Source: Enterobacteria phage GiZh. From it: a stretch of 64,000 nucleotides of DNA. A program made the position numbers and the translations under genes. The stretch lies in sequence record NC_054903.1; one strand, written 5' to 3'. The notes below the pieces were generated by a model, which worked only from the letters and a program-made list of their open reading frames with translations, had not been told where the DNA came from and did not search any database. The stretch's first letter is position 1, and each line of letters opens with the position of its first letter. Below, in pieces: positions 4,120 to 59,080 of this stretch.

Positions 4120-4785
4120 ATGGCTGATTTAAAAGTAGGTTCAACAACTGGAGGCTCTGTCATTTGGCATCAAGGAAATTTTCCATTGAATCCAGCCGGT
4201 GACGATGTACTCTATAAATCATTTAAAATATATTCAGAATATAACAAACCACAGGCTGCTGATAACGATTTCGTTTCTAAAGCTAATGGTGGTACTTATG
4301 CATCAAAGGTAACATTTAACGGTGGAGTTCAAGTTCCGTATGCTGTAAACAACACAAACCTATGCGGTGTTTATCCAGGTAACGGTGATAATGCTACTTT
4401 TGCTGTAGCAAATATCGATATTGTTTCGTGGAATGGTATTGGTTTTAAATCATCACAAGGTTCAGCAGCTCGAACTGTTGTAATTAATGCACGTAATGGT
4501 GATATTAGTACAAAAGGCGTTGTGTCGGCAGCAGGTCAAGTAAGAAGTGATGCGGCTGCTCCTATAGCAGCGAATGACCTTACTAGAAAGGACTATGTTG
4601 ATGGAGCAATAAATACTGTTACGGCAAATGCAAACTCTAGGGTGCTACGGTCTGGTGACACCATGATAGGTAATTTAACAGCGCCAAACTTTTTCTCGCA
4701 GAATCCTGCATCTCAACCTTCACACGTTCCACGATTTGACCAAATCGTAATTAAGGATTCTGTTCAAGATTTCGGCTATTATTAA
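4120..4785 (+). CDS. 36: long tail fibre distal subunit gp36
   Basis: 221 aa, same as T4 gp36; synteny. Confidence 0.85.
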
Positions 4786-4793
4786 GAGGACTT

Positions 4794-7700
4794 ATGGCTA
4801 CTTTAAAACAAATACAATTTAAAAGAAGCAAAACCGCAGGTGCACGTCCTGCTGCTTCAGTATTAGCCGAAGGTGAATTGGCTATAAACTTAAAAGATAG
4901 AACAATTTTTACTAAAGATGATTCAGGAAATATCATCGATTTAAGCATTTCTGCTGGTGGTAATATCAGTGGTAATATTACTCAAACTGGTGATTATACA
5001 CAGACTGGAAAATTTAATTTAATTGGTCCGCAAATTGTAGAAAGCGGTGGATATATTGAGTTTAATTATCGTACTACTGGAAGTGGGGCTTGGTCCGGTC
5101 AACATACTGCGAAAGCTCCAATTTTTGTAGATTTAAGCTCAGCTACTTCCACATCTGAATATAATCCTATAATTAAACAGCGCTTTAAAGATGGAACTTT
5201 TTCATTAGGTACTTTAGTTTCTGAAGGTTCGTTGAAGATTCATTATATCAATGAATCTGGCGATTCGAAATATTGGACGTTTCGACGTGACGGCGGATTT
5301 ACTGTTGACGGTGGAGGTTTAGGAGTATCAGGAGGTAGTATAACTACATCTGGAAATATTGCAGCTCTCGGAAATATTACTTCGCCTCAGATTAATACTA
5401 AAAATATTATTTTAGATACAAAAGCATTTGGACAATACGATTCGCAGTCATTAGTTCAATATGTTTATCCTGGAACCGGTGAAGAAAACGGTATAAACTA
5501 TCTTCGTAAAGTTCGAGCTAAATCAGGCGGAACTATTTACCATGAAATCGCTTCAGCTCAAACCGGTAAAAATGATGAAATTTCTTGGTGGACCGGAAAT
5601 ACACTTACTACTAAATTAATGGGTCTTCGTAATGATGGCGCAATGGTATTACGTCGTTCACTTGCTATTGGCACAATTACCACTGACGAAAATACTAACA
5701 ACTATGGTTCTCCTACTCCAATGGGAGAAAGATATATTGCTTTGGGCGATGCTGCCACTGGTTTAAAATACATTAAGCAGGGCGTTTATGATTTAGTAGG
5801 TAATTGGAATTCTGTTGCGTCTATTACTCCTGATAGTTTCCGTAGTACTCGTAAAGCGATATTTGGACGTTCAGAAGACCAAGGCGGAACCTGGACAATG
5901 CCTGGAACGAACGCTGCCTTTTTATCAGTTCAAACACAGGCTGATGAAAACACTGCTGGAGACGGCCAGACGCATATTGGCTATAACTCAGGCGGAAAAA
6001 TGAACCACTATTTCCGTGGTAAAGGCAAAACTAATATTAATACTCAGGAAGGTATGGAAGTTAATCCGGGTATTTTGAAATTGGTAACTGGCTCTAATAA
6101 TGTAATGTTTTATGCTGATGGCGGTATTACATCTGTTAAGCAGCTTTCAATATATAATGGCATATATTTAGCAGCTAATAATTCTACTGCTGGGCTAACA
6201 TTCGCTCCAACTACTACAATTGATGGCACTAAGCAAATTTTGTGGGAAGGCGGTACTCGTGCTGGTCAGAATAAAAGCTATGTAACTGTTAAAGCATGGG
6301 GTAATTCATTTAACGCATCTGGCGATCGTAATCGTGAAACGGTTTTTGAAGTAGCTGATGGACAAGGATATTATTTTTATTCACAGCGTGTGGCTCCAAG
6401 TGGCTCTGAAACTACTGGGCCTGTTGTAACCCAGTTCAATGGACAAGTTAATGCTAGAGGAAGTATTATTACTGACGGAAGTTTTAAAGTTAATGGATTA
6501 AGCACTTTAGTCGGTAATGTTACCATGTCTAATGGTTTGTTTGTCCAAGGTGGTTCTTCTATTACTGGACAAGTAAAAATTGGTGGAACTGCTGATGCAT
6601 TAAGAATTTGGAATGCCGAATACGGTGCTATTTTCCGTCGCTCAGAAACAGCATTACATATTATCCCGACTCCTAAAGATGCCGGTGAAAGTGGTGGAAT
6701 AAGTAATCTCCGCCCACTTAGTATTAGTCTTAATAATGGTATGGTACAAATGCGCCATTCTGTTACGTTAGGCGATGATGGCGCTGGCGGTAATATGATT
6801 ACTGTGGACAACGATACCAAACTTGTTGTTGTTACTAGTCATAGTCGTATTTCTCCTAATTACCGTATGCAGGTAGGACAAGCAGCTTATATTGATGCTG
6901 AATGTACTGACACCGTTCGCCCGGCTGGCGCAGGGTCTTTTGCTTCACAAAATAATGAAAACGTTCGTGCTCCGTTCTATATGAATATTAATCGCACAGA
7001 TACAAGTACTTACGTTCCTATTTTAAAACAACGTTATGTTCAAGGAAATAGCTGTTATTCTTTAGGTACTTTAATAAATGGCGGTAACTTCAGAGTTCAT
7101 TATCATGAAGGTGGAGACGGAAGTTCAACAGGCGCAATTATAAAAGATTTAGGCTGGGAATTTACACGTTCTGGTGATTTTATATCTCCTAAGCGCATTT
7201 CTGCTGGGGGTTCAGTTTATTTAGGTACAGACGGTAACATTACTGGTGGTTCTGGTAATTTTGCCAACTTAAATAGTACAATTGAATCACTTAAAACTGA
7301 TATTGTTTCAAGTTATCCTATTGGAGCTCCGATTCCTTGGCCTACTGATACACCTCCTGAAGGTTATGCCATAATGGAAGGTCAAACATTTGATGTTGGC
7401 TTGTATCCTAAGTTAGCTGCGGTGTATCCTTCCGGCTCTCTGCCTGATATGCGCGGGCAAACTATCAAGGGTAAACCATCTGGGCGTGCTGTATTAAGTA
7501 CAGAAGCAGACGGTGTTAAGTCACATAGTCATAGTGCAAGTGCATCAAGCACGGATTTGGGTACTAAGACCACATCAAGCTTTGACTATGGTACTAAGAC
7601 GACAAGTAGTTTCGACTATGGTACTAAGACCAGTAATAATACTGGTGCTCATACGCATAGTTTGAGCGGTTCCACAAACACCGCCGGTGCGCACAGCCAC

Positions 7701-8015
7701 ACAAGCGCTCTTTATGCGGGAAGTAACAACTCTCCTGGTACTGGTTCTATAAGAGGATCCGCCGGTGGTGGTAATACGCTTGGAACTTCTTCTTCTGGGG
7801 CACATTCGCACTCTATATCTGGTACTGCTGCAAGCGCAGGCGCTCACGCGCATACTGTTGGTATTGGTGCTCATACCCATACTGTAGGTATCGGTGCTCA
7901 TACCCACACGGTAGCAATTGGCTCGCATGGTCATACTATCACTGTAAATAGTACAGGTAATACAGAAAACACGGTTAAAAACATTGCTTTTAACTATATT
8001 GTTCGTTTAGCATAA
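4794..8015 (+). CDS. 37: long tail fibre distal subunit / receptor-recognising gp37 (T4-type, His-box tip)
   Basis: 1073 aa; C-terminal HxH repeats ([16 protein letters not shown]...) typical of T4-type gp37 needle tip; synteny. Confidence 0.9.
7560..7640 (+). repeat. tandem 30-bp coding repeat (~2.7 copies) in gp37 tip region, encoding [10 protein letters not shown] units
   Basis: ggtactaagacNacaNcaagNtttgactat repeated head to tail. Confidence 0.8.
7845..7935 (+). repeat. tandem ~30-bp coding repeat encoding AHTHTVGIG His-box units in gp37
   Basis: ggtgctcatacccaYacNgtaggtatc repeated. Confidence 0.75.
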
Positions 8016-8614: not shown

Positions 8615-9271
8615 ATGGCAGCACCTAGAATATCATTTTCGCCCTCTGATATTCTATTTGGTGTTCTAGATCGCTTGTTCAAAGATAACGCTACCGGGAA
8701 AGTTCTTGCTTCCCGGGTAGCTGTCGTAATTCTTTTATTTATGATGGCGATTGTTTGGTATAGGGGAGATAGTTTCTTTGAGTACTATAAGCAATCAAAG
8801 TATGAAACATACAGTGAAATTATTGAAAAGGAAAGAAATGCACGCTTTGAATCTGTCGCCCTGGAACAACTCCAGATAGTTCATATATCATCTGAGGCAG
8901 ACTTTAGTGCGGTGTATTCTTTCCGCCCTAAAAACTTAAACTATTTTGTTGATATTATAGCATACGAAGGAAGATTACCTTCAACAATAACTGAAAAATC
9001 ACTTGGAGGATATCCTGTTGATAAAACTATGGATGAATATACAGTTCATTTAAATGGACGTCATTATTATTCTGACTCAAAATTTGCTTTTTTACCAACT
9101 AAAAAGCCTACTCCCGAAATAAACTACATGTACAGTTGTCCATATTTTAATTTGGATAATATCTATGCTGGAACGATAACCATGTACTGGTATAGAAATG
9201 ATCATATAAGTAATGACCGCCTTGAATCAATATGTGCTCAGGCGGCCAGAATATTAGGAAGGGCTAAATAA
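8615..9271 (+). CDS. t: holin T
   Basis: 218 aa, same as T4 holin; sequence recognised (MAAPRISFSPSDILFG..). Confidence 0.9.
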   Translation: MAAPRISFSPSDILFGVLDRLFKDNATGKVLASRVAVVILLFMMAIVWYRGDSFFEYYKQSKYETYSEIIEKERNARFESVALEQLQIVHISSEADFSAVYSFRPKNLNYFVDIIAYEGRLPSTITEKSLGGYPVDKTMDEYTVHLNGRHYYSDSKFAFLPTKKPTPEINYMYSCPYFNLDNIYAGTITMYWYRNDHISNDRLESICAQAARILGRAK

Positions 9272-9544
9272 TTATTTGTTCGTATACATCTCTAGATATC
9301 GATATACACCCTCAAAACCCTCGTTGAATTCGTCGATGAGGGTTTTCTTATCTTCTTGGGTTAATTCAGAAACAATTTTACGGAATGAATTTTGATTTAA
9401 CTTTCTACCTTCATGCGTTACTCCAATCTCATTCAGAAATGCAATAAAATTAGCACGATTTTCAACAATATCTTCTCTGGAAAATTTAATCAAAATAGAC
9501 GCAACAGTAATAATTTCACGAACTGTATCAATGTTTTTATTCAT
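9272..9544 (-). CDS. asiA: anti-sigma70 factor AsiA
   Basis: 90 aa; sequence recognised (MNKNIDTVREIITVASILIKF..). Confidence 0.9.
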   Translation of the reverse strand: MNKNIDTVREIITVASILIKFSREDIVENRANFIAFLNEIGVTHEGRKLNQNSFRKIVSELTQEDKKTLIDEFNEGFEGVYRYLEMYTNK

Positions 9545-13600: not shown

Positions 13601-13604
13601 AAAT

Positions 13605-17540: not shown

Positions 17541-19718
17541 TTAGGCCGCAAGGGCCTTCATAGTTTTAGCGATTTGGGAAACTTCATCATCACTTAAAGA
17601 GTTGCGATAACCGATGAAGTCGGAAACAATACGGAATTTCTTGGTAAACTCAGCAACCATTTTATCACTATTTTTTGAAGCATTACGTGATAATTCATCA
17701 AAGAGATTAGTTACTGTCCAGATATCATGACCGATGGTATCTTTTCCACCATTGAAATACACACCGCGTAATGAACTAACCATATTACCAAGTCGTGTAT
17801 ATTCTTCAGAAACTTCATCTGTACTGAAGTACTTCATCATAAAATCTAGTTCAGGATACTTGATAATTTTATCAATATATCGTTGAGCTGAACTTGAATA
17901 ACCTACATACTTATCATAATCTACATCATCAAAAGCATCTACATATAAATCACGCAAAGCTTCAAAAATACATTGGCACTGACCGAGTTCTTTTACCTTT
18001 TTCTGTAAAAGCGGACGAATAACATAAAATTCATTAATGCCAATAAGATTAGCCATACGAATCAAAATATTCATAGATGGATGACAAAGTGATGTAGTAC
18101 CATCCATAGAGAAAATATCAGAACGATGCATATACGCTACATAACCAGTAATTTCATCTGCTTCTGACGTAAGTGTAAATAATTCCTCTTTTTCCCAACG
18201 CCCATCTTTAATTTCAAACTTAAATGCTGTAGCAGCTTTAGGACGAGGAGCTTTACTTTTAACTACCTTTGGAATATAGCTTTTAACTAAAGCTTCAATT
18301 TCTGACAAATAATGAATGTTAACTTCATCACTTTCAAACATTGCCATAATATCAGGTAGTAAATCAATCTGCGATTCTACTTCCGGATTAATAAACAGAA
18401 GACGCTCATTGTGATGAATATTTAAAGTGTTATTAAATTCACTATCATCTAGCGCATGTGCTAATCCACGGACAATATTAACACGATTTTTAATATTATC
18501 AATAACGATATTAATTTTTGTTGTATTAATACCAAACAGACGATAACTTGACGCAACGGCTGATGTTTCATGACTTTGCTTAATGCGCTTCAGTCGAGGG
18601 TCAAGATTTACTTCATACACAACTCCTGCATTACATAACTTACTGTCAGGTTCAAACATGCTCTGCATTTTCTTATATGACAGATTTTTAGTCGTGAATT
18701 TGACTGAATTACTAATCATATAATCTCGAGCAGAATACCCCATCTTCATCAATTCACGATATGTGTGACGAGGAGATGTAGATTCTTTAAATCGTTTTAC
18801 ATCTTCATTAAATGCTTTCTCACTAAGCTCTTTAACTCGTTCAATGATATTTTTACGAGTGCGATCATCTAGTGAAAGAGCCTCGCGAGATGGAGCAATA
18901 TCAAGTGAACCCATTGGAAACTTAATGTAATTCACTTCATTGCGAATGCTTAGCCAGTTACGGTCTCTAATAACACCATCGATAGGATAAACAATACCGC
19001 CATAGATAGCATATAATCCACCACGATCAGGCCAGTATCTTTCTGGATTTACACCATAATAATCATCAAAATCAGGAAAATAATCAATTTCGCGGTCAAG
19101 ACCATTAATGATAGCCAAATCTTTGAACGGTCGCATGATATAAGAAACTTCATAAGCAAAGTTTCTAAAGTCTTTTTCTTCAACTGGAACTACGATTTCA
19201 ATACCAGTTTTATCATCTGGACCCATTTCTTTTACGAATGTAGGTTTAATCTGTGGGCCATCACCATCCATGTAAGCTACATAACCACGAATTTCACCTT
19301 TATGATACGAAGTAATACTAAACGTATCAGTATAACTAAACGGAGATTTAGAACCTAAACCAAATCCGCCAATAAAGTCATTAGATTCAGCCTTAGATGA
19401 ACTGAAGTATGAATTATACAGCCCAGGAGAATTATCATCACCCTGAATATCAAAATCACTCATACCCGGACCAAAATCTCGACAAACAAATCGTGGATCT
19501 AATCGTCCTGGAACTTGAATGATAAATTTTTCAGGATTTCCATTAAGTGCATGAGCATCAATCATGTTAGTAATCAATTCACGGACTACTGCGCGAATCT
19601 TGTTTGTATACAAATCAGATGACAGAATTTTAAATACTTTAGGATTTGCTGCGATGCTAAATGCTTTTGATTTAGAACCATTGCCAAGAATTGTTTCTTT
19701 TTCAGTGGTGATAATCAT
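17541..19718 (-). CDS. rIIA: rIIA
   Basis: 725 aa, same as T4 rIIA; GHKL-ATPase-like N-terminus. Confidence 0.9.
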
Positions 19719-20001: not shown

Positions 20002-21806
20002 TCTTTACGAAGGTCAGCATTATCTCCCATGAGCATTTCAAAAAGCTCTTTCCAATTCTCAGGAAGTTTAACAACATCATATACTGGATTTTGAATCATC
20101 TCACGATATTCAGATTTTTCCAAAGAGCCAAGTCCCTTAATATAACGGATGCTATGTTTAGGTAGAGCATCTTTGGCACTCTCATATTCAGCGACTGTAT
20201 AAAACCATTCTTGTTTTTTACCGACCTGAGCGATGATTACAGGAGTTTTGACAAAGCGAATTCGTCCTTGCTCAAACAATTCTGGCCAATTACTAAAAAA
20301 TCCGAGCAGAGAAGGATAAATGCTTCCTAGACCATCATGGTCAGCATCAGTCATAATAGCAATATTGCGATAATTCAAGTTTTCAGCTTTTTCACCAAGA
20401 ACTAGACCAGTGATTGCGCAAATATCAAATAGTTCTTTGTTTTTAAGCATATCGGCATATGACATACCCCAGCTATTAAGAACTTTACCGCGCAATGGAT
20501 AACCACCATGAAGTTCTTTATCGCGAACATCAATAAGATATCCGATAGCTGAATCACCCTCAGTCAAGAACAATGTAGTGTCAGCATCTTTACCGCAAAG
20601 ATTCGCTTTAATATGTTTATGAACCTTAGCTTTAGAAGCCTTTTTAGCTGCTTTAGTTTCTGCTGCTTTTTCTGCCGCCAATTTACGAGCCAAAGCAGCT
20701 TCAATAATCGGCATCAGAATTGCTTCATTATTTAGAATAGCGCGTGAAATCTTTTTAGCGTCAAGTTGAATATGACTACGAATTTCGCCAAATGGAGAAG
20801 TCAAACGCTCTTTAGTTTGAGAATCAAATCGCATGTTTTTCATATCACGAACAAACATAACGATAGTCAAACATTCTTTAACGCGTGCTTTAGTTACATC
20901 AATTTTGAACTTACGTTTGATTTGTGGAATAAGGTCTTCACAAATATCATCCATAACACAGTCAATGTGATGGCCACCATTCTTAGTATGAATGTTATTG
21001 ACGTATGTTAATTGACGAAAACCATCCGGTGAACGACCAACCGCAATAGAACAATTTTCTTGTTCTTGAACGATAGCATGTTCATCATATTGGCGTGCGT
21101 ATTTCTTAAAATTACCCTGAACCTTTTTACCATTAAAGGTAAATTGAATATCAGGATAAACAACAGCAAGTGTTTGGAGACGATCTAGTGTAATGTCAAG
21201 ATAAACTTGGGACAGCTCATTAGTTTCAAATGACATAAAATCAGGAATGAAAGTAACACGGGTTCCTTTCCATTTTCCAGGAATATCTTCCCATGATTTA
21301 TTTTCCATGCCGTTTGAACAACGAACTACAATATTATTTTGACCATCACCAGTTTCACCGACAAACATCACAGAAAAAATGTTTGTCAAACTAGAACCAA
21401 CACCATTCATACCACCGGTGACGCGTTCTTTATCATCACCGAAGTTACCACCTGCTTTTGGAATAGTCCACGCAGCAACAGGACCAGGAATTTCTTCACC
21501 GGTAGGTGTTTTAACCATCGCCTGTGGAATACCACGACCGTTATCTTCAACTGTTACTTGATTATTTTTAATAGTAACATTAATTTTATTCGCGAATTTA
21601 AACTTAGTACGAATACCTTCATCTACTGAGTTATCGATAATTTCATCAATAAGCTTAACAAGACCAGGTACATACTGAACACTTTCCCATTTACCAAACA
21701 GAAAGCGCTCATGCATTTCATTAGCTGAAGAGCCAATGTACATGCCGCTACGCTTTTTGATATGTTCAATATCGCTCAGAATTTTAATTTCATTCTTAAT
21801 CATCAC
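19986..21806 (-). CDS. 39: DNA topoisomerase II large (ATPase, GyrB-like) subunit, uninterrupted 39/60 form
   Basis: 606 aa single ORF; GHKL ATPase and TOPRIM-like motifs; T4 splits this into 39 + 60 with a translational bypass. Confidence 0.9.
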   Translation of the reverse strand: MMIKNEIKILSDIEHIKKRSGMYIGSSANEMHERFLFGKWESVQYVPGLVKLIDEIIDNSVDEGIRTKFKFANKINVTIKNNQVTVEDNGRGIPQAMVKTPTGEEIPGPVAAWTIPKAGGNFGDDKERVTGGMNGVGSSLTNIFSVMFVGETGDGQNNIVVRCSNGMENKSWEDIPGKWKGTRVTFIPDFMSFETNELSQVYLDITLDRLQTLAVVYPDIQFTFNGKKVQGNFKKYARQYDEHAIVQEQENCSIAVGRSPDGFRQLTYVNNIHTKNGGHHIDCVMDDICEDLIPQIKRKFKIDVTKARVKECLTIVMFVRDMKNMRFDSQTKERLTSPFGEIRSHIQLDAKKISRAILNNEAILMPIIEAALARKLAAEKAAETKAAKKASKAKVHKHIKANLCGKDADTTLFLTEGDSAIGYLIDVRDKELHGGYPLRGKVLNSWGMSYADMLKNKELFDICAITGLVLGEKAENLNYRNIAIMTDADHDGLGSIYPSLLGFFSNWPELFEQGRIRFVKTPVIIAQVGKKQEWFYTVAEYESAKDALPKHSIRYIKGLGSLEKSEYREMIQNPVYDVVKLPENWKELFEMLMGDNADLRKEWMSQ

Positions 21807-21830
21807 TTATCCTCGTTTGGTTTCGGGAAT

Positions 21831-21858
21831 ATTATACTCCGGTAATCATAAAGCTAAA
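21831..21858 (-). promoter_or_regulatory. putative MotA-dependent middle promoter (AGCTTTA box, 12-nt spacer, TATAAT) upstream of gene 39
   Basis: - strand reads ttAGCTTTA-N12-TATAAT; same arrangement recurs at 54435..54459. Confidence 0.4.
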
Positions 21859-21872
21859 GGCCCGAAGGCCTT

Positions 21873-22142
21873 TTATTTAAAACGAATAGTTGAATCCTTA
21901 AAGAACAGCCCAGAACATACTGTTCCTTCTACTTTCTGCCCGGTAGGTCCAATAGCACGAAATCCAGTATGTTGGAAATCATTTTCAGAACAACCGAACC
22001 AGTTATATCCAGTGATTTCAATATTAGTAAAACCGCTTGAAGATAAAACTTTGGTTGCATTATCAGCATCAGTACATCCTACTAAAGACACTGTTAATAC
22101 TAATGCTGCAATAGAACGATTAATATATTTCATAATTTTCAC
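21873..22142 (-). CDS. small lipoprotein (89 aa)
   Basis: signal peptide ending in lipobox LVGC. Confidence 0.6.
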   Translation of the reverse strand: MKIMKYINRSIAALVLTVSLVGCTDADNATKVLSSSGFTNIEITGYNWFGCSENDFQHTGFRAIGPTGQKVEGTVCSGLFFKDSTIRFK

Positions 22143-22510
22143 TTAAATTTAATGGCTTGAAGAAGACTAATAATTCTCAAGCGACTTCTTTCATCTTTAA
22201 CTGTAAAAGAAAGAGGGTCACCAGATTTCATAGTAATAGTACATTCAAAATCAAAATCTTCGGAAACTTCTTTGAAGAAGTCAAATTCTTCATCATAAAT
22301 TAGAACATTACTCTGACAACTATGAAGAATTTTTCCATCATTTCCAGATGCTGTACTAATCATTGTAACATTATGACCTTTCATATCTTCAATGATAAAT
22401 TCACTAGTCAATATTACAGCATTAATAGAACTATTCCTATTACTAGCAGAAAGTAGATATTTCTGTTCTTCACCTTCACGAATGCAATATTTCTTACCGA
22501 TTTTAAACAT
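22139..22510 (-). CDS. hypothetical protein (123 aa)
   Basis: ORF, ATGA coupling. Confidence 0.55.
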   Translation of the reverse strand: MFKIGKKYCIREGEEQKYLLSASNRNSSINAVILTSEFIIEDMKGHNVTMISTASGNDGKILHSCQSNVLIYDEEFDFFKEVSEDFDFECTITMKSGDPLSFTVKDERSRLRIISLLQAIKFK

Positions 22511-32962: not shown

Positions 32963-33060
32963 AGTGTTCTCCTCTATAAGATATTTTTATTATACCACAC
33001 TCATTTTGACATGTAAACCATAAAATGAAAAAAGGAATCCCGAAGGATTCCTTAAATTAT

Positions 33061-33318
33061 TTAACCACCTACACCAGGTGTAGGTGTAACAGTCCAAAGA
33101 CCTTCATTAGCAGTGATCCATTCAGTACGCTGATTTTCTTCATATACTGTAGAATATGCTGCTTTTTCAGAAGGGAATGTCTGATAATGAGCACCAGAAA
33201 TTTTGTGAACATCAGAATAAAGAGGGAAAGCTACAGAAATTTCTTTACCCTGAATTGTACCACCATCAACTGCTTGGTCAAATGTTTTGATATTAACATA
33301 ACCGCGAGTACTAGCCAT
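33061..33318 (-). CDS. soc: small outer capsid protein Soc
   Basis: sequence recognised (MASTRGYVNIKTF...AFPLYSDVHKISGAHYQTF); 85 aa vs 80 in T4. Confidence 0.85.
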   Translation of the reverse strand: MASTRGYVNIKTFDQAVDGGTIQGKEISVAFPLYSDVHKISGAHYQTFPSEKAAYSTVYEENQRTEWITANEGLWTVTPTPGVGG

Positions 33319-33334
33319 GTAATTCTCCTTTTAT

Positions 33335-33544
33335 TTAAATTACATGATTATTTATAATAAATTCTCGCGGAACGTTAAAATACCCGATTTTAGTTAATAT
33401 AACAACATCGCCGTTAATAATTACCGGAGAATAATCTTCTGGAGCATTAAATTTCCAATGGGCTCTAATATTATATCCATCAGAACCAAATGCTCGCGTA
33501 GCTGGTCTCCCAGCTTTTTGCCATGCGTAGAAATCAAATTTCAT
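33335..33544 (-). CDS. hypothetical protein (69 aa)
   Basis: ORF between soc and 56. Confidence 0.5.
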   Translation of the reverse strand: MKFDFYAWQKAGRPATRAFGSDGYNIRAHWKFNAPEDYSPVIINGDVVILTKIGYFNVPREFIINNHVI

Positions 33545-33735
33545 TTTGAATGCTCTATAATTAATTTTAAAGCTTCTTCACTGACAAAAATTTCGTCAGG
33601 ACCTTCTATAACTTCAACCATACGAAGTTGATTAGTTAAGAGCTCACATACGAGCTCCTTGTTATAATCTTTAAATAGCTGGTCAATACGTTTCTTATGG
33701 GCTTTCTTGAGCTGACGCTTATTTAAACGAGCCAT
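33541..33735 (-). CDS. hypothetical protein (64 aa)
   Basis: ORF. Confidence 0.5.
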   Translation of the reverse strand: MARLNKRQLKKAHKKRIDQLFKDYNKELVCELLTNQLRMVEVIEGPDEIFVSEEALKLIIEHSK

Positions 33736-34253
33736 TAATAACCTCGGTCTTGACGAGCGAAGTTTTCAGCATTTTTCAGATAATAAAGTTTAAATATTTC
33801 TTCAGCTGACATTCCAAGAGCAATGAATTTATTCATGAAAAAGTGAAATTGATCAATCAGTTCAAATTTAATTTCAAGCTGATCTTCAGGAGATAAATCT
33901 TGAATTTTCTTGGATTGCATTTCAGAATAACGTTTCTTCCAAGGTTTCCATACAGCAGAAGCTTCTTTTTCGCCATTACTCATACCACCGAGAGAAGTAT
34001 ATAGCTCGCGAGTTTCGTCTGCGATATAATCGTCTTGGTTTCGCAACCAAGCAAGAACTTCTCCCGCAGTTTCAAGTGAATCAGGATGACGATTTGTTTC
34101 TGGTTTATCATTAGCCAAACGAATCTGTAAATGCCGCTGCATGTCAAGCATAACCTGCAGTGGGTCAATATTGTGCATAATATTCTCAGCATATGCACGA
34201 TTTGCTTTATCAACACCTTCGATCAAATGAGCACATTCATTAAAGTAAGCCAT
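33735..34253 (-). CDS. 56: dCTPase/dUTPase gp56 (MazG-like)
   Basis: 171 aa from ATG 34253 with RBS (ORF-track N-terminal extension not used); same length as T4 gp56. Confidence 0.8.
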   Translation of the reverse strand: MAYFNECAHLIEGVDKANRAYAENIMHNIDPLQVMLDMQRHLQIRLANDKPETNRHPDSLETAGEVLAWLRNQDDYIADETRELYTSLGGMSNGEKEASAVWKPWKKRYSEMQSKKIQDLSPEDQLEIKFELIDQFHFFMNKFIALGMSAEEIFKLYYLKNAENFARQDRGY

Positions 34254-34324
34254 TATTTTTCCTTTCAATTCATGGGTTAGTAGATTAATTATACAATAAA
34301 TATATAAAGCAATAAGGAGGACAT

Positions 34325-34525
34325 ATGGTACAAAAATTAATGGCACTTGTTAATGCCATCAAAGGTAATAAGAAACGTATAGCTTTTACTATTTCTGCTA
34401 TGGTAGGAATTTTACTCTGGAACTTTATTTTATCACCAATTGCAATTGCACATGGTGTTAATATTCCAGTAGTTACTCTTGATACATTTGTAGATTTAGC
34501 ATTTGCTTTAGTTGGGTTAATTTAA
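34325..34525 (+). CDS. small two-helix membrane protein (66 aa), the only + strand ORF in the early region
   Basis: perfect SD AAGGAGG 5 nt before ATG; hydrophobic; stop overlaps gene 61 stop on opposite strand. Confidence 0.5.
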   Translation: MVQKLMALVNAIKGNKKRIAFTISAMVGILLWNFILSPIAIAHGVNIPVVTLDTFVDLAFALVGLI

Positions 34526-35550
34526 ATCTTAGCATATTTAGATAACCGCATTTTAGCCATCAACCCCTGGGCAATATTATTTTTCATATATTCCATAATT
34601 TGTTCAGGGGTTGCACCTTCCTTTCTAATCATATCATTAACATCTTTTGATTTCCAGGGAGATTTATCCCAAAACATAACCCTTTCTCCTGCATCAACTA
34701 ATTTAGTCATTCGCTTAATAGTGTCAGGATGACGAGGTTCATTATCTAAGACCCACACACGCCTATCTTTAAATGGAACAACTTCTAGGTCTAATTGACC
34801 ACCCGTAATAGCTATACCATTTTCAATAAAAAGTGAATCTATAGGTCCTTCTAAAACATATACATCACCATCTTTAACTCGTTCGACTCCATATATTTTT
34901 GTTGCCTCAGGATAAGCTTTGATGGTGATATATTTTTGAGGAGCATCTTTCTTTAATGCACGTCCTTGAAAAGACTCAGCTTTTCCATTAGCATTATAAA
35001 TTGGAATAACAAGACGAGGCTCAGAAATTTCCTTTTTGTATGTTCCCGGTGCTATGCTATTAACTAATTTAGGCCATTCAGTTGTAAACCAAAGATATTT
35101 CCATTTATCCTTTGGAATACAACGAGCTTTTACATATTTTATAATTGCATGGTCTTCCGCCAGTTTATCTAATCGAACACATGACGGAAGAGATTTAATT
35201 ATTTTCTTCTCAGGTTGTTTAGGAAGTTCTTTAGGTTTTTCTACTGGACGACTTTTACCTTTTTCTTTTCTTATTTCAAAGATATACTCACGATATAAAT
35301 CAGGTTCAAACTCCTTTAAATATATTCCGATTGGTGCATGATAGTTACAGTTATAACAATGAATATTTCCTTCATTATTATCACCATAATACCATCCACG
35401 AGCTTTATTCTGGTCGGTTTTTGAATCTCCACAAACAGGACATCTAAACCGTAATTTAAAAGTTGAACTATTATTTACTTGTGTGAATTTAGGTAAATGA
35501 GCTAATGCACGGTATGCAAACTCATTATCAATCCAAGGTATTGATGACAT
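34522..35550 (-). CDS. 61: DNA primase gp61
   Basis: 342 aa, same as T4 gp61; N-terminal zinc ribbon CPVCGDSK...CYNC and TOPRIM region. Confidence 0.9.
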   Translation of the reverse strand: MSSIPWIDNEFAYRALAHLPKFTQVNNSSTFKLRFRCPVCGDSKTDQNKARGWYYGDNNEGNIHCYNCNYHAPIGIYLKEFEPDLYREYIFEIRKEKGKSRPVEKPKELPKQPEKKIIKSLPSCVRLDKLAEDHAIIKYVKARCIPKDKWKYLWFTTEWPKLVNSIAPGTYKKEISEPRLVIPIYNANGKAESFQGRALKKDAPQKYITIKAYPEATKIYGVERVKDGDVYVLEGPIDSLFIENGIAITGGQLDLEVVPFKDRRVWVLDNEPRHPDTIKRMTKLVDAGERVMFWDKSPWKSKDVNDMIRKEGATPEQIMEYMKNNIAQGLMAKMRLSKYAKI

Positions 35551-35713: not shown

Positions 35714-35760
35714 ATTAACCTCTATTCATAAAAGCATTAAAAATTTGGTCATCAATAGAT
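35711..35760. repeat. ~50-bp direct repeat copy 1 (3' end of 118-aa gene and downstream)
   Basis: about 48/51 identical to 36069..36118. Confidence 0.8.
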
Positions 35761-36071
35761 GGAATAGCAACCTTTTCGGCATCATTTAGCAAATCATTAA
35801 TTTCATCAGATAGCATAACACATGTGCCTTTATTTCCTGTAATTGTTACTGCGCAATTACGAACGTTTTCTTTATCAAATTTTAGGTTAATATTTTCGTA
35901 GTGAAAATCCTTTAATGCCGAATATATCTTTAAAATGAAATTGTCTTTTACTACAATAAACCCAACCTCACTATTAAAACGCGGTTCATGGAAACTGTAA
36001 TAAACCTTTTCATCTATAAAATCGTATGAAATTTTTTCCATTTTTAAATATGAAAATTCAGAACTATACAT
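35715..36071 (-). CDS. hypothetical protein (118 aa), one copy of a repeated domain
   Basis: homologous to C-terminal half of the neighbouring 210-aa protein; ends DDQIFNAFMNRG. Confidence 0.5.
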   Translation of the reverse strand: MYSSEFSYLKMEKISYDFIDEKVYYSFHEPRFNSEVGFIVVKDNFILKIYSALKDFHYENINLKFDKENVRNCAVTITGNKGTCVMLSDEINDLLNDAEKVAIPSIDDQIFNAFMNRG

Positions 36072-36118
36072 ATTAACCTTTATTCATAAAAGCATTAAAA
36101 ATTTGATCGTCAATAGAA
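36069..36118. repeat. ~50-bp direct repeat copy 2
   Basis: matches 35711..35760. Confidence 0.8.
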
Positions 36119-36705
36119 ACTTTTACTTTAGGCTGTTCTTCAAACGGTAATTCATATCCACATATTACAATTTTGTGATCGATACCAAAATACACAGAAG
36201 CAATATTATTAATATTATTTTCAGTGAAATCTAAATCAACATCAATATCTTTTTGACTAACGCTCAAAGGATAATTAATACGAATAATTCGATTATCTTT
36301 AACAAAGATTCCACCGACATACTCTGTGCTGCGTTTAAAGTTTACACGTTTCCTAAATGAAAAATATTCAGGTTCTTTATGCGCTCGACTCATAGGGCTT
36401 AAAGTGTATTCCGAATATGAAATATCAAATCCTACACCTTCAATATGAGCCAAAGTGTCATGATTAAACCAATTATAATCGTATGCCAAATCCATTAAAT
36501 TGTAATATGTGAAAGGCACCGGATTAACATCATATGTTGTACCTTTAAAATCTGCCCAGGCAACGATTTCGTTATCTTTAACAATTACAAAAATTGTGCC
36601 AATAAGATATCCACGGTTATTTTCATCAGGTGTTATATTATAACATTGTGCATCAGGAAATTTACCGTATTTAAACGGTGGATTTTTGTGCATATAATAA
36701 ATCAT
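36073..36705 (-). CDS. hypothetical protein (210 aa) with internal domain duplication; positional equivalent of T4 61.2
   Basis: two (F/I)VKDN-containing repeats; ends DDQIFNAFMNKG. Confidence 0.55.
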   Translation of the reverse strand: MIYYMHKNPPFKYGKFPDAQCYNITPDENNRGYLIGTIFVIVKDNEIVAWADFKGTTYDVNPVPFTYYNLMDLAYDYNWFNHDTLAHIEGVGFDISYSEYTLSPMSRAHKEPEYFSFRKRVNFKRSTEYVGGIFVKDNRIIRINYPLSVSQKDIDVDLDFTENNINNIASVYFGIDHKIVICGYELPFEEQPKVKVSIDDQIFNAFMNKG

Positions 36706-46173: not shown

Positions 46174-46395
46174 TTAAATTAGTACTATTTGTCGGTGAAA
46201 AATTGTCATTCCATCTGCATTAATTGACTTAACGACTGCAGTAAAGTGTTTTTGTTCTGGGTGAATTAATTTTTGAAATTCTACCTGAAATTTTAGTTGA
46301 AGGTTTTCTGGTAAATCGAAAAGTGTTTCTGTTGCAGAAAGATTATATTTTTCTTTAAGAGACGCCATGTATTCTTGTGGAGTTATAGCAGTCAT
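46174..46395 (-). CDS. hypothetical protein (73 aa) between regA and gene 43
   Basis: ATG overlaps regA stop region; ORF-track 87-aa version overlaps regA. Confidence 0.45.
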   Translation of the reverse strand: MTAITPQEYMASLKEKYNLSATETLFDLPENLQLKFQVEFQKLIHPEQKHFTAVVKSINADGMTIFHRQIVLI

Positions 46396-46396
46396 A

Positions 46397-49029: not shown

Positions 49030-49913
49030 TTCAATTTCCTATTTACATAATAGTTAGACCAGGACCGTACAGCACCCTGATAAGATTCGTCGTTAAACCC
49101 ATTAGCTACTGCAATTTTACGAAATTTATTATAACTTGGTTTTCCGTAAGCATGCCATAAAGATTTTAATTCATCTTCATGTTCAATCCAAGTTCCTCTA
49201 GCTTTAGATTTTCTAAATTTTGATTTGAATTCCGGTAAATTATTTCTAACAGTTGCTTGAATTGAAGCTCTCTGTCTTCTTTCAGCATTATTCCATAATT
49301 CTTTTTGAGATTTAGAAATTTTTGATCTTACACTTTCTGAATTCATTATATCACTAAACTTTTTAGCATAACTACAATCAAGATATTTCAATTTCATCTT
49401 ATTTGAGAGTTTAAGCTTTTTCTCATCGGTCCAGTGATTCTTCATTGAATTAGATATTTTGTATTTTACTTCAGAACTATGTTTGTAACCTTTACGAATA
49501 CCGACATACTCAGGCGTAATTTCAGATTGCGAAAGCTTTACAATTTTTCCAGTTAAAACATTTTTATATGTTCCATATCCTTTAGCACCAATTAAAGTAT
49601 TTTCATCTGCGTATGCTTTATTAAAATATTTTATATTACTCTTTGCTTTAACTTTTAATTGAAAAAATCTCTCCAATTTTCTTGGATCTAATATAGTTTC
49701 AGCTAAAATTTTGACGGTATATTTAGTGGTTTTAATAAGTTCAAAATATTCATCGCTATAACTCGATGACACGCTTCCAGTATAAATCTTTCCAGCTGAA
49801 TCAATTATATTTGTTCCATCGAAAATTGCGTTAATTTTTGAACCTATATAATAACACGGAAAAATATTTTTAGCTTCCCGCTCTGGAAAGCTAATAAGAT
49901 ATACTAAATTCAT
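49026..49913 (-). mobile_element. putative Seg-like GIY-YIG homing endonuclease gene (295 aa)
   Basis: N-terminal VYLIS...YYIGS (GIY-YIG-like) and repeated basic K/S-rich C-terminal motifs; T4 has no large gene here. Confidence 0.45.
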
Positions 49914-50299
49914 TTATTAAACTCGGCCACAATTGTTTCCGCAACAATTTGTGCAGCAACAATCAGACGTTCATCTGCATTACCGCAATAATCATCTTCA
50001 AGGCGTTCACCACATGAAGTCATAATAAATTTAGCACCGGCGTTTAGGGATTCTGTAGTATGTTTGCGCATTAGTTCAATCCATTTATTACTTACTTCAC
50101 GATCGATAGCTTCATAATACGCATGACGAGCAGGTGCAGATTTAATTTTGTTCTGAATAACTTCCATTGCGTTATCAGAAAGAGACAAAACCCATGCGCG
50201 ACGAATTTTATTTTGGTTTTGTGGATTTGATTCAGAACGCACGTGTTTTGGCTGAATATCTTTTACATCAACAGTATAATTCACAGTAATTTTAGTCAT
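49910..50299 (-). CDS. rpbA: RNA polymerase-binding protein RpbA
   Basis: 129 aa, same as T4 RpbA; position upstream of 45. Confidence 0.7.
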
Positions 50300-53698: not shown

Positions 53699-54299
53699 GG
53701 TGTCTTTTCCATCCTAATTTAGCTGCTTTTGAAACCAGTTCTTTAATTTTTCCTTTTGTCCATTCAGGACCAGGAGGTTCATGACATAACATTTGCTTAA
53801 CTCCGTTATTATACCATTTTTTACCTTTATTATGTGATGAAGCTTTAAATTTATTTGACCTTCCTTTTACATAACCTTCTGGAATATAAGGTAAAAATGC
53901 AGATTTTCCTGTTAATGGATCATGTGAATGTATATTTCCTTTACAATTATGAGAACCATATAATGGATGATTTTTTCCTTTAATATCTCTTCCAAATGAA
54001 CCTTTTGGAGCAGCATATGACATATTAAAGAATAATGGATTTTTAACTGCATCATGCAATCGTTGATAATATAACTCGCATTTAATAGCTTCTTCACGCG
54101 TATCAAATTCAGCTAAAATGCATGAATCAAATAAGTGAGGATTATCTGAAAGCTCTTTATTATAAATTTTCTTATACTTTTTAGATAAAACTGAACCATG
54201 ATATCCAGCTAAATGCCTATCTAAAGACGTAGATCCAATATAAAAAGGAGGAAGTTTATCTCCACTATATATTGTTAAATAAGTTATATATTTTTTCAT
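53676..54299 (-). mobile_element. Seg-like GIY-YIG homing endonuclease gene (207 aa)
   Basis: YITYLTIYSG...FYIGSTS...R...E...N pattern; C-terminal KKWYNNG motif; overlaps gene 47 start by 23 nt. Confidence 0.6.
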
Positions 54300-58747: not shown

Positions 58748-58922
58748 GGAGTTTAATTTCCTTAGCAACTGAACTAAATACAGCACGATCACAAATCATG
58801 TGTTTATGTAACTTGAGTATAATATAGCAAACTTCAAAACTATTTACATGAGTAACACGAACAGCATTACCATTAATGAGATAATACTGTCCCTTTTTAA
58901 TTTCTTTATCAACCACAACCAT
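58740..58922 (-). CDS. hypothetical protein (60 aa)
   Basis: ORF downstream of promoter cassette at 58945..59005. Confidence 0.4.
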   Translation of the reverse strand: MVVVDKEIKKGQYYLINGNAVRVTHVNSFEVCYIILKLHKHMICDRAVFSSVAKEIKLHG

Positions 58923-58944
58923 ATCAATTCCTCAAAGGTAATTC

Positions 58945-59005
58945 ATGTGTTAATAATACCACAGTTTGAGCTCGTTGTAAACAACTTTGTGAAAATTATT
59001 TTAGG
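58945..59005 (-). promoter_or_regulatory. early promoter cassette (GTTTAC ... TGGTATTA)
   Basis: shares the UP/-35 block of the other cassettes. Confidence 0.4.
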
Positions 59006-59080
59006 GAATGATAAGAAGGGAACGATAGCTTAGAATGGTAATATACAGAATGTAAGAAAGAAAGGCCCAGAGGGCCCGTC

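Follow-up and report, generated by a model that had tools for sequence, protein, structure and literature searches.

A 66-aa open reading frame (ORF) on the plus strand of Enterobacteria phage GiZh, located between genes 56 and 61, is very probably the ortholog of T4 dam.1 and a genuine, conserved small gene of the Tevenvirinae. From position 9272 to the end of the window, by which we mean the whole 64,000-nt stretch of GiZh DNA that was analyzed (NC_054903.1), it is the sole credible plus-strand gene. The finding is real but ordinary: dam.1 is a known small gene of the T-even phages, and the gene and the dam-less layout in which it is found here are already annotated in the public genomes of T6, T4T, and RB18. 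With both annotated in classical phages, little is at stake. The T4 RefSeq record omits this gene, which is conserved and under selection in the subfamily, and analyses based on the RefSeq gene list therefore miss dam.1.

Layout of the gene 56-gene 61 interval

The ORF, its Shine-Dalgarno (SD) sequence, and its two minus-strand neighbors were assigned as follows.

34325..34525 (+): 66-aa ORF with an ATG start, very probable ortholog of T4/T6 dam.1 (ORF reading, 98.5% amino acid identity to T4T dam.1, match to phrog_2024, synteny)
34314..34320 (+): SD sequence AAGGAGG, 4 nt (ACAT) ahead of the ATG (read directly)
33735..34253 (-): gene 56 (dCTPase), a non-T4 allele as in T6 and RB18 (tblastn, annotation of relatives)
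34522..35550 (-): gene 61 (DNA primase), convergent with the ORF and overlapping it by 4 nt

The ORF ends in TAA at 34523-34525, and gene 61, read from the opposite strand, has its stop at 34522-34524. The minus-strand gene 56 begins at 34253, and its product is 69% identical to T4 gp56 at the amino acid level (tblastn), the allele being of the T6/RB18 type. In a greedy ORF map of the window, six plus-strand genes (the tail-fiber genes and t) are located up to 9271. Past 9272, the same map contains the dam.1 ORF and three further plus-strand ORFs (21736-22146, 33025-33357, and 58848-59033), which were rejected as shadows because they overlap better minus-strand genes. The closest complete genome, that of JLBYU31, matches 95% of the window at 97.3% identity. 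Its record has a single plus-strand CDS, the dam.1 homolog, in the initial 50 kb, which align from window position 13602 to the window end.

A preliminary description of this DNA had singled out the ORF as the lone plus-strand ORF past 9272, and the ORF map and the JLBYU31 annotation both bear this out. Most of its account of the locus stands as well: the 66-aa membrane-type ORF is real, its stop codon does overlap that of gene 61 on the opposite strand, with 4 nt shared by the two genes, and the 56-61 gap, put at about 270 bp, measures 268 bp. The perfect SD sequence was correctly read as AAGGAGG, with a spacer of 4 nt rather than the 5 nt originally given.

Several other features of the window were recorded. 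Two small ORFs of the T6ORF029/soc.2 type are present at 33335-34253 (-) in place of the T4 homing endonuclease gene segF. Two adjacent minus-strand ORFs of 118 and 210 aa (35715-36071 and 36073-36705) end in a near-identical C-terminal peptide, ...SIDDQIFNAFMN(R/K)G, and this shared ending suggests that a 61.2-like gene was duplicated in tandem. Five segments were either unaligned to JLBYU31 or only 80% identical to it. Two of these (4941-5810 and 6690-7844) fall within the distal tail-fiber gene, and the other three (46182-46396, 49041-49915, and 53699-54292) are indels of the early region.

Orthologs of dam.1 and absence of the dam methylase

When the GiZh peptide was compared by tblastn with 50,697 phage records, 866 were matched, approximately 501 of them at an identity of at least 90%, and T4 was among the matches. 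In T4T (HM137666, locus T4Tp032), the ORF is annotated as dam.1 at 17724-17924 (+), between dam and 61, and the proteins are 98.5% identical. The T4 RefSeq record (NC_000866) carries no dam.1 annotation, and the 309-bp gap between dam and 61 is left blank (17626-17934; 2627-2935 in locus L003). The preliminary description had placed the ORF where T4 has dam and gene 69. This does not hold, since T4 carries the same plus-strand ORF next to dam, the very observation named beforehand as counting against that reading. The T4 gene resembles the GiZh ORF in its equal length, its convergent 4-nt overlap with 61, its AAGGAGG SD sequence, and a comparable nATAAATA motif approximately 29 nt upstream, but differs from it in having dam as the upstream neighbor and nonhomologous sequence upstream of the SD sequence. 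In GiZh, as in T6, the upstream neighbor is gene 56, and the late motif is located within the putative 56 middle promoter. T6 (MH550421) annotates Dam.1 in the order soc, T6ORF029, soc.2, 56, dam.1, 61, a gene order identical to that of the window, with neither dam nor segF, and RB18 has the same order.

Beyond these close relatives, a small plus-strand ORF is found between 56 and 61 in Mosigvirus (JS09, noted as RB69ORF029w), JK45, Gaprivervirus (VR7ORF033w), Jiaodavirus (Mineola gp027), Kanagawavirus (CIP9_133), and Gelderlandvirus (S16 gp16.1); RB32ORF030w is another ortholog. The site, the orientation (opposite to that of all neighbors), and the size (63 to 69 aa) are kept in seven genera. 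RB69ORF029w, RB32ORF030w, VR7ORF033w, S16 gp16.1, Mineola gp027, and CIP9_133 share the map position, the orientation, and a W-N-[FY]...P...G...P core with the GiZh ORF, although their amino acid identity to it is only 27 to 55% and some orthologs are parted from gene 61 by a spacer or another ORF.

In profile comparisons, the GiZh protein matched phrog_2024, a family annotated as of unknown function, with an E value of 1.5e-31 (residues 2-66 against positions 1-65 of the 65-position profile). It had no Pfam family match, the NCBIfam and PDB sequence searches returned nothing meaningful, Foldseek against viral structures recovered only the protein's own family, and no publication on the gene came up in a literature search on dam.1 and RB69ORF029w-type names. 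The family is small: when 1.84 billion cluster representatives were searched with its profile, only 17 clusters scored an E value of ≤0.001.

Patterns of conservation indicate that the ORF is a real protein-coding gene. Pairwise Nei-Gojobori dN/dS values were 0.10 to 0.51 in 13/13 comparisons, and the ORF protein is therefore under purifying selection; synonymous sites were saturated between genera. Six residues (W32, N33, P38, G44, P48, and G64) are invariant in nine T4-like sequences, and in a 22-member alignment including distant relatives, P38 was invariant and W32 and N33 were at least 90% conserved. The family core, W-N-[FY]-x4-P ... G ... P within 60 to 70 aa, is represented in GiZh by W32, N33, P38, G44, and P48. 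An SD sequence of the GGAG(G) type was kept in 8/8 lineages examined. It could be argued that the frame arose by chance in spacer DNA and codes for nothing, because it is short, is left unannotated in the T4 RefSeq record, and lacks a Pfam family match. However, we find this scarcely credible: seven genera retain the frame, synonymous change is saturated while dN/dS stays below 1, the SD sequence and the promoter motif are both conserved, and unrelated prophage-like contigs carry homologs.

The suggestion that the phage lacks Dam is supported: tblastn with T4 Dam gave no match in the GiZh window and no homolog in the complete JLBYU31 genome (best E value, 0.31). T6 lacks dam at the 56-61 locus, and whole-genome absence of Dam was shown for JLBYU31. 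The alignment with the T4 56/dam/61 region, proposed in the preliminary description as a check, was run; the ORF is common to both phages and the dam cassette is present only in T4. On the side of gene 56, homology to T4 (74% DNA identity) ends at window position 34293; it begins again at 34314, at the SD sequence (97.9%), and between these two ends T4 has approximately 0.9 kb, comprising dam and its flanks. The T2 insert contains dam plus a further ORF of 181 aa. The inserts of T4 and T2 are both located between the putative 56 middle promoter and the putative late promoter of the ORF. The same alignment region was also said to hold gene 69, but the "gene 69" of the 1984 record X01416 is segF and 56 read as one frame, and its shorter form, 69*, is segF.

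Across the phage collection, Dam was found at an identity of at least 90% in 182 records, versus 501 records with the ORF at that level; therefore, about two-thirds of the ORF-bearing phage records lack dam. At the 56-61 locus, dam was absent from RB18 and from the examined representatives of Mosigvirus, Gaprivervirus, Jiaodavirus, Kanagawavirus, and Gelderlandvirus. Judging from the records compared, the order 56, ORF, 61 without dam is widespread and is the commoner one among T4-like coliphages. By outgroup comparison only, it is probably also the ancestral layout. Because T4 has the ORF alongside dam, the gene content of these phages indicates that the ORF is not a replacement for dam.

Promoter motifs and predicted transcription of the locus

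Two putative promoters of different types were identified in the spacer between gene 56 and the ORF.

34295..34302 (+): putative late promoter with the T4-like late motif AATAAATA, which departs from the consensus TATAAATA by an A at -13; located 30 nt ahead of the ATG
34288..34311 (-): putative gene 56 middle promoter, predicted from sequence, with MotA box TGCTTTA (34305-34311), 11-nt spacer, and TATAAT (34288-34293)

Late genes were recognized by a TATAAATA-type motif located approximately 6 nt upstream of the transcription start and near the gene, and the GiZh ORF has such a motif. From its position, we infer a gp55-type late promoter, with transcription starting near 34308 and a leader of about 17 nt. 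Of 50 listed T4 late promoters, 32 match the consensus perfectly and A at -13, the commonest variant, is found in nine; T4 late transcripts are of either polarity, and the early and middle transcripts are all counterclockwise (Geiduschek and Kassavetis, PMC2988020). The nATAAATA motif occurs at only 10 sites on both strands of the 64 kb. The window's three perfect TATAAATA sites are located 31, 25, and 38 nt before the starts of 36, t, and soc, respectively, which are known late genes. Other AATAAATA sites are present at 4608 (+), 32022 (+), 11361 (-), and 62512 (-) and could be variant late promoters.

The motif recurs upstream of the orthologs, where nATAAATA was found 20 to 41 nt before the ATG in 7/8 lineages with diverged flanks. 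Most lineages have a variant motif, with A, G, or C at -13.

GiZh window, T6, and RB18: AATAAATA
T4 and T2: GATAAATA
JS09 and JK45: AATAAATA
VR7 and pEC-M719: CATAAATA
Mineola: CATAAATA, plus GATAAATA further upstream; a related contig has GATAAATA only
CIP9: TATAAATA
S16: TATTAAATA only, with no exact nATAAATA match

When the 60 nt upstream of the ORF in each lineage were shuffled with their composition preserved, nATAAATA appeared in 1 to 11% of trials per lineage, and its presence in 7/8 lineages is therefore far above chance. The late expression guessed at in the preliminary description is consistent with this conserved late-promoter motif.

On the opposite strand, a GCTT(T/C/A) box and a TA-AAT -10 sequence were recognized upstream of 56 in most lineages examined, with only the -10 clear in Mineola. 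The GiZh site at 34288..34311 is the counterpart of T4 P(M)16.53, which is next to the annotated oriA. The T4 annotation puts the origin itself within the 5′-terminal part of gene 56 and not in the dam region, where it had been placed earlier. Within the 71-bp spacer, the plus-strand late motif is embedded in the spacer of the minus-strand MotA promoter. The two predicted promoters, of different classes and opposite directions, share approximately 25 bp. A conserved late motif is thus found within an otherwise early, opposite-strand region, and in the dam-less phages it is interleaved with an oriA-type 56 middle promoter.

A late plus-strand transcript would run toward gene 61, and two hairpins near the ORF bear on its fate and on that of the opposing transcript.

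34337..34362 (-): tentative terminator-like hairpin of 11 pairs, including two G-U pairs, followed by TTTTT, inside the 5′ end of the ORF
34561-34613 (+): stable hairpin with arms CAACCCCTGGGCAA and TTGTTCAGGGGTTG, inside the 3′ end of gene 61 (fold of 115 nt, z score of -3.3)

The main role of the locus might be regulatory: the late transcript would cover the 3′ end of gene 61 in antisense orientation, perhaps reaching further, and would lower late primase expression, the peptide being secondary. The genes are convergent with overlapping stops in Tequatrovirus, Mosigvirus, Gelderlandvirus, and Kanagawavirus, no canonical plus-strand terminator follows the ORF, and certain T4 sites are known to be transcribed from both strands, though at different times (PMC2988020). 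However, some lineages lack the overlap: the two genes are separated by approximately 120 to 210 nt in VR7 and pEC-M719 and by an 18-nt gap with a GC hairpin in Mineola. In GiZh, the stable hairpin located 36 to 88 nt past the stop could end the transcript early. Purifying selection, moreover, acts on the protein sequence itself. Weighing these observations, we regard a primarily antisense function as very unlikely and favor a function carried by the protein.

Hairpins resembling that at 34561-34613 fold in JS09, CIP9, and S16; its alignment contained no covariation, its arms encode conserved primase residues, and the Rfam search found nothing. The minus-strand hairpin at 34337..34362 was seen only in Tequatrovirus sequences, and chance alone would produce about 1.2 minus-strand terminator-like sites over the region scanned. 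This hairpin could end gene 61 transcripts ahead of the gene 56 promoter.

Predicted protein architecture and role

The best reading of the ORF is that it encodes a late-expressed inner-membrane protein, where both the late expression and the membrane location are predictions. In a 19-residue Kyte-Doolittle scan, hydropathy peaked at 2.02 from residue 23 and at 1.86 from residues 47-48. AlphaFold2, run on a 19-sequence alignment (pLDDT of 75), placed helices at residues 2-12, 16-42, and 52-63. The helix at 16-42 spans 27 residues and is followed by a short loop; the helix at 52-63 spans 12 residues and has D53 and D57 on one face. Residues 1-18 are basic, with five K/R residues (K4, K13, K16, K17, and R18) and no acidic ones. 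The two hydrophobic helices of the preliminary description are thus retained as two hydropathy segments, whereas the AlphaFold2 model has one long helix and casts doubt on a second membrane-spanning one. The models accordingly make one transmembrane helix clear and leave the second doubtful.

Taken together, the models suggest that the protein is anchored in the membrane with its N terminus inside and a tail that is periplasmic or re-entrant. Clockwise transcription would start at a gp55-type late promoter belonging to the ORF, and the translated product would be an inner-membrane protein. The predicted basic, amphipathic N-terminal helix would be on the cytoplasmic side. The predicted transmembrane helix (approximately residues 16-42) would bear the conserved W32-N33-[FY] and the invariant P38 and would be followed by a loop, HG..xP. 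The acidic-faced C-terminal helix (D53 and D57) would be periplasmic or would re-enter the membrane. The most likely role of the dam.1 protein would then be that of a nonessential accessory factor working at the cell envelope in the late stage of infection.

A more specific role, as a holin-like protein or a factor that sets lysis timing, was considered. The dam.1 protein would then be related to the 3TM holins (PF11351, GTA/TeaA type), corresponding to a shortened form of their C-terminal membrane portion, and would modulate membrane permeabilization or lysis inhibition alongside the T holin. It is a small membrane-type protein with a predicted late promoter, and one UniRef entry is named "Holin." Four distant members match PF11351 with E values of 0.03 to 0.1 over profile positions of approximately 66-117 of 123, but their scores of 13 to 15 bits are below the gathering cutoff of 24.8, and PF11351 was matched by no T4-like member, the GiZh protein being without any Pfam match. 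One member matches the holin family phrog_3427 (E value of 5e-4). An hhalign comparison of the family profile with the "GTA-like holin" of cyanophage Pan1 gave a probability of 91%, although the Pan1 protein itself reaches an E value of only 0.04 against PF11351, and the same comparison with the experimentally tested TeaA of ICP1 gave 0.2%. A further candidate, from Oceanospirillum phage PD0307, had no PF11351 match in the copy of Pfam used and was therefore set aside as a comparison.

The protein and its setting also depart from what a holin would lead one to expect. There is no charged C-terminal tail, as the protein ends in ...AFALVGLI with no charge after D57. The locus has no lysis-cassette context: the neighbors encode a dCTPase and a primase, t is 25 kb away at 8615-9271, and in JLBYU31, tens of kilobases separate the homolog from the lysozyme and spanin genes. 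The 3TM holins (PF11351, TeaA) are, like the dam.1 product, small phage membrane proteins, but they have three membrane segments and the dam.1 product has one or two. T4 t mutants fail to lyse, and the dam.1 protein is therefore not a sufficient holin. The similarity to 3TM holins consequently failed testing, on the sub-threshold PF11351 scores, the TeaA result, the missing tail, and the absence of a lysis context, and we judge a holin-like role to be unlikely. It is similarly improbable that the protein is an unrecognized late inner-membrane component of the T-even envelope or lysis program, perhaps a truncated 3TM-holin relative that tunes holin triggering, lysis inhibition, or membrane integrity. 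The broader reading, a late inner-membrane accessory protein, is preferred.

Distant relatives belonging to phrog_2024 were also found in contigs that are not T4-like (L017, 3001-3210; L021, 3001-3213; and L022, 129-308), with E values of approximately 1e-11 (some approximately 6e-11). No consistent partner gene was seen in these three neighborhoods. The settings, one each, were a position following tail genes and preceding a serine recombinase gene, a prophage end near host genes, and a position beside a gene with a RelA/SpoT domain.
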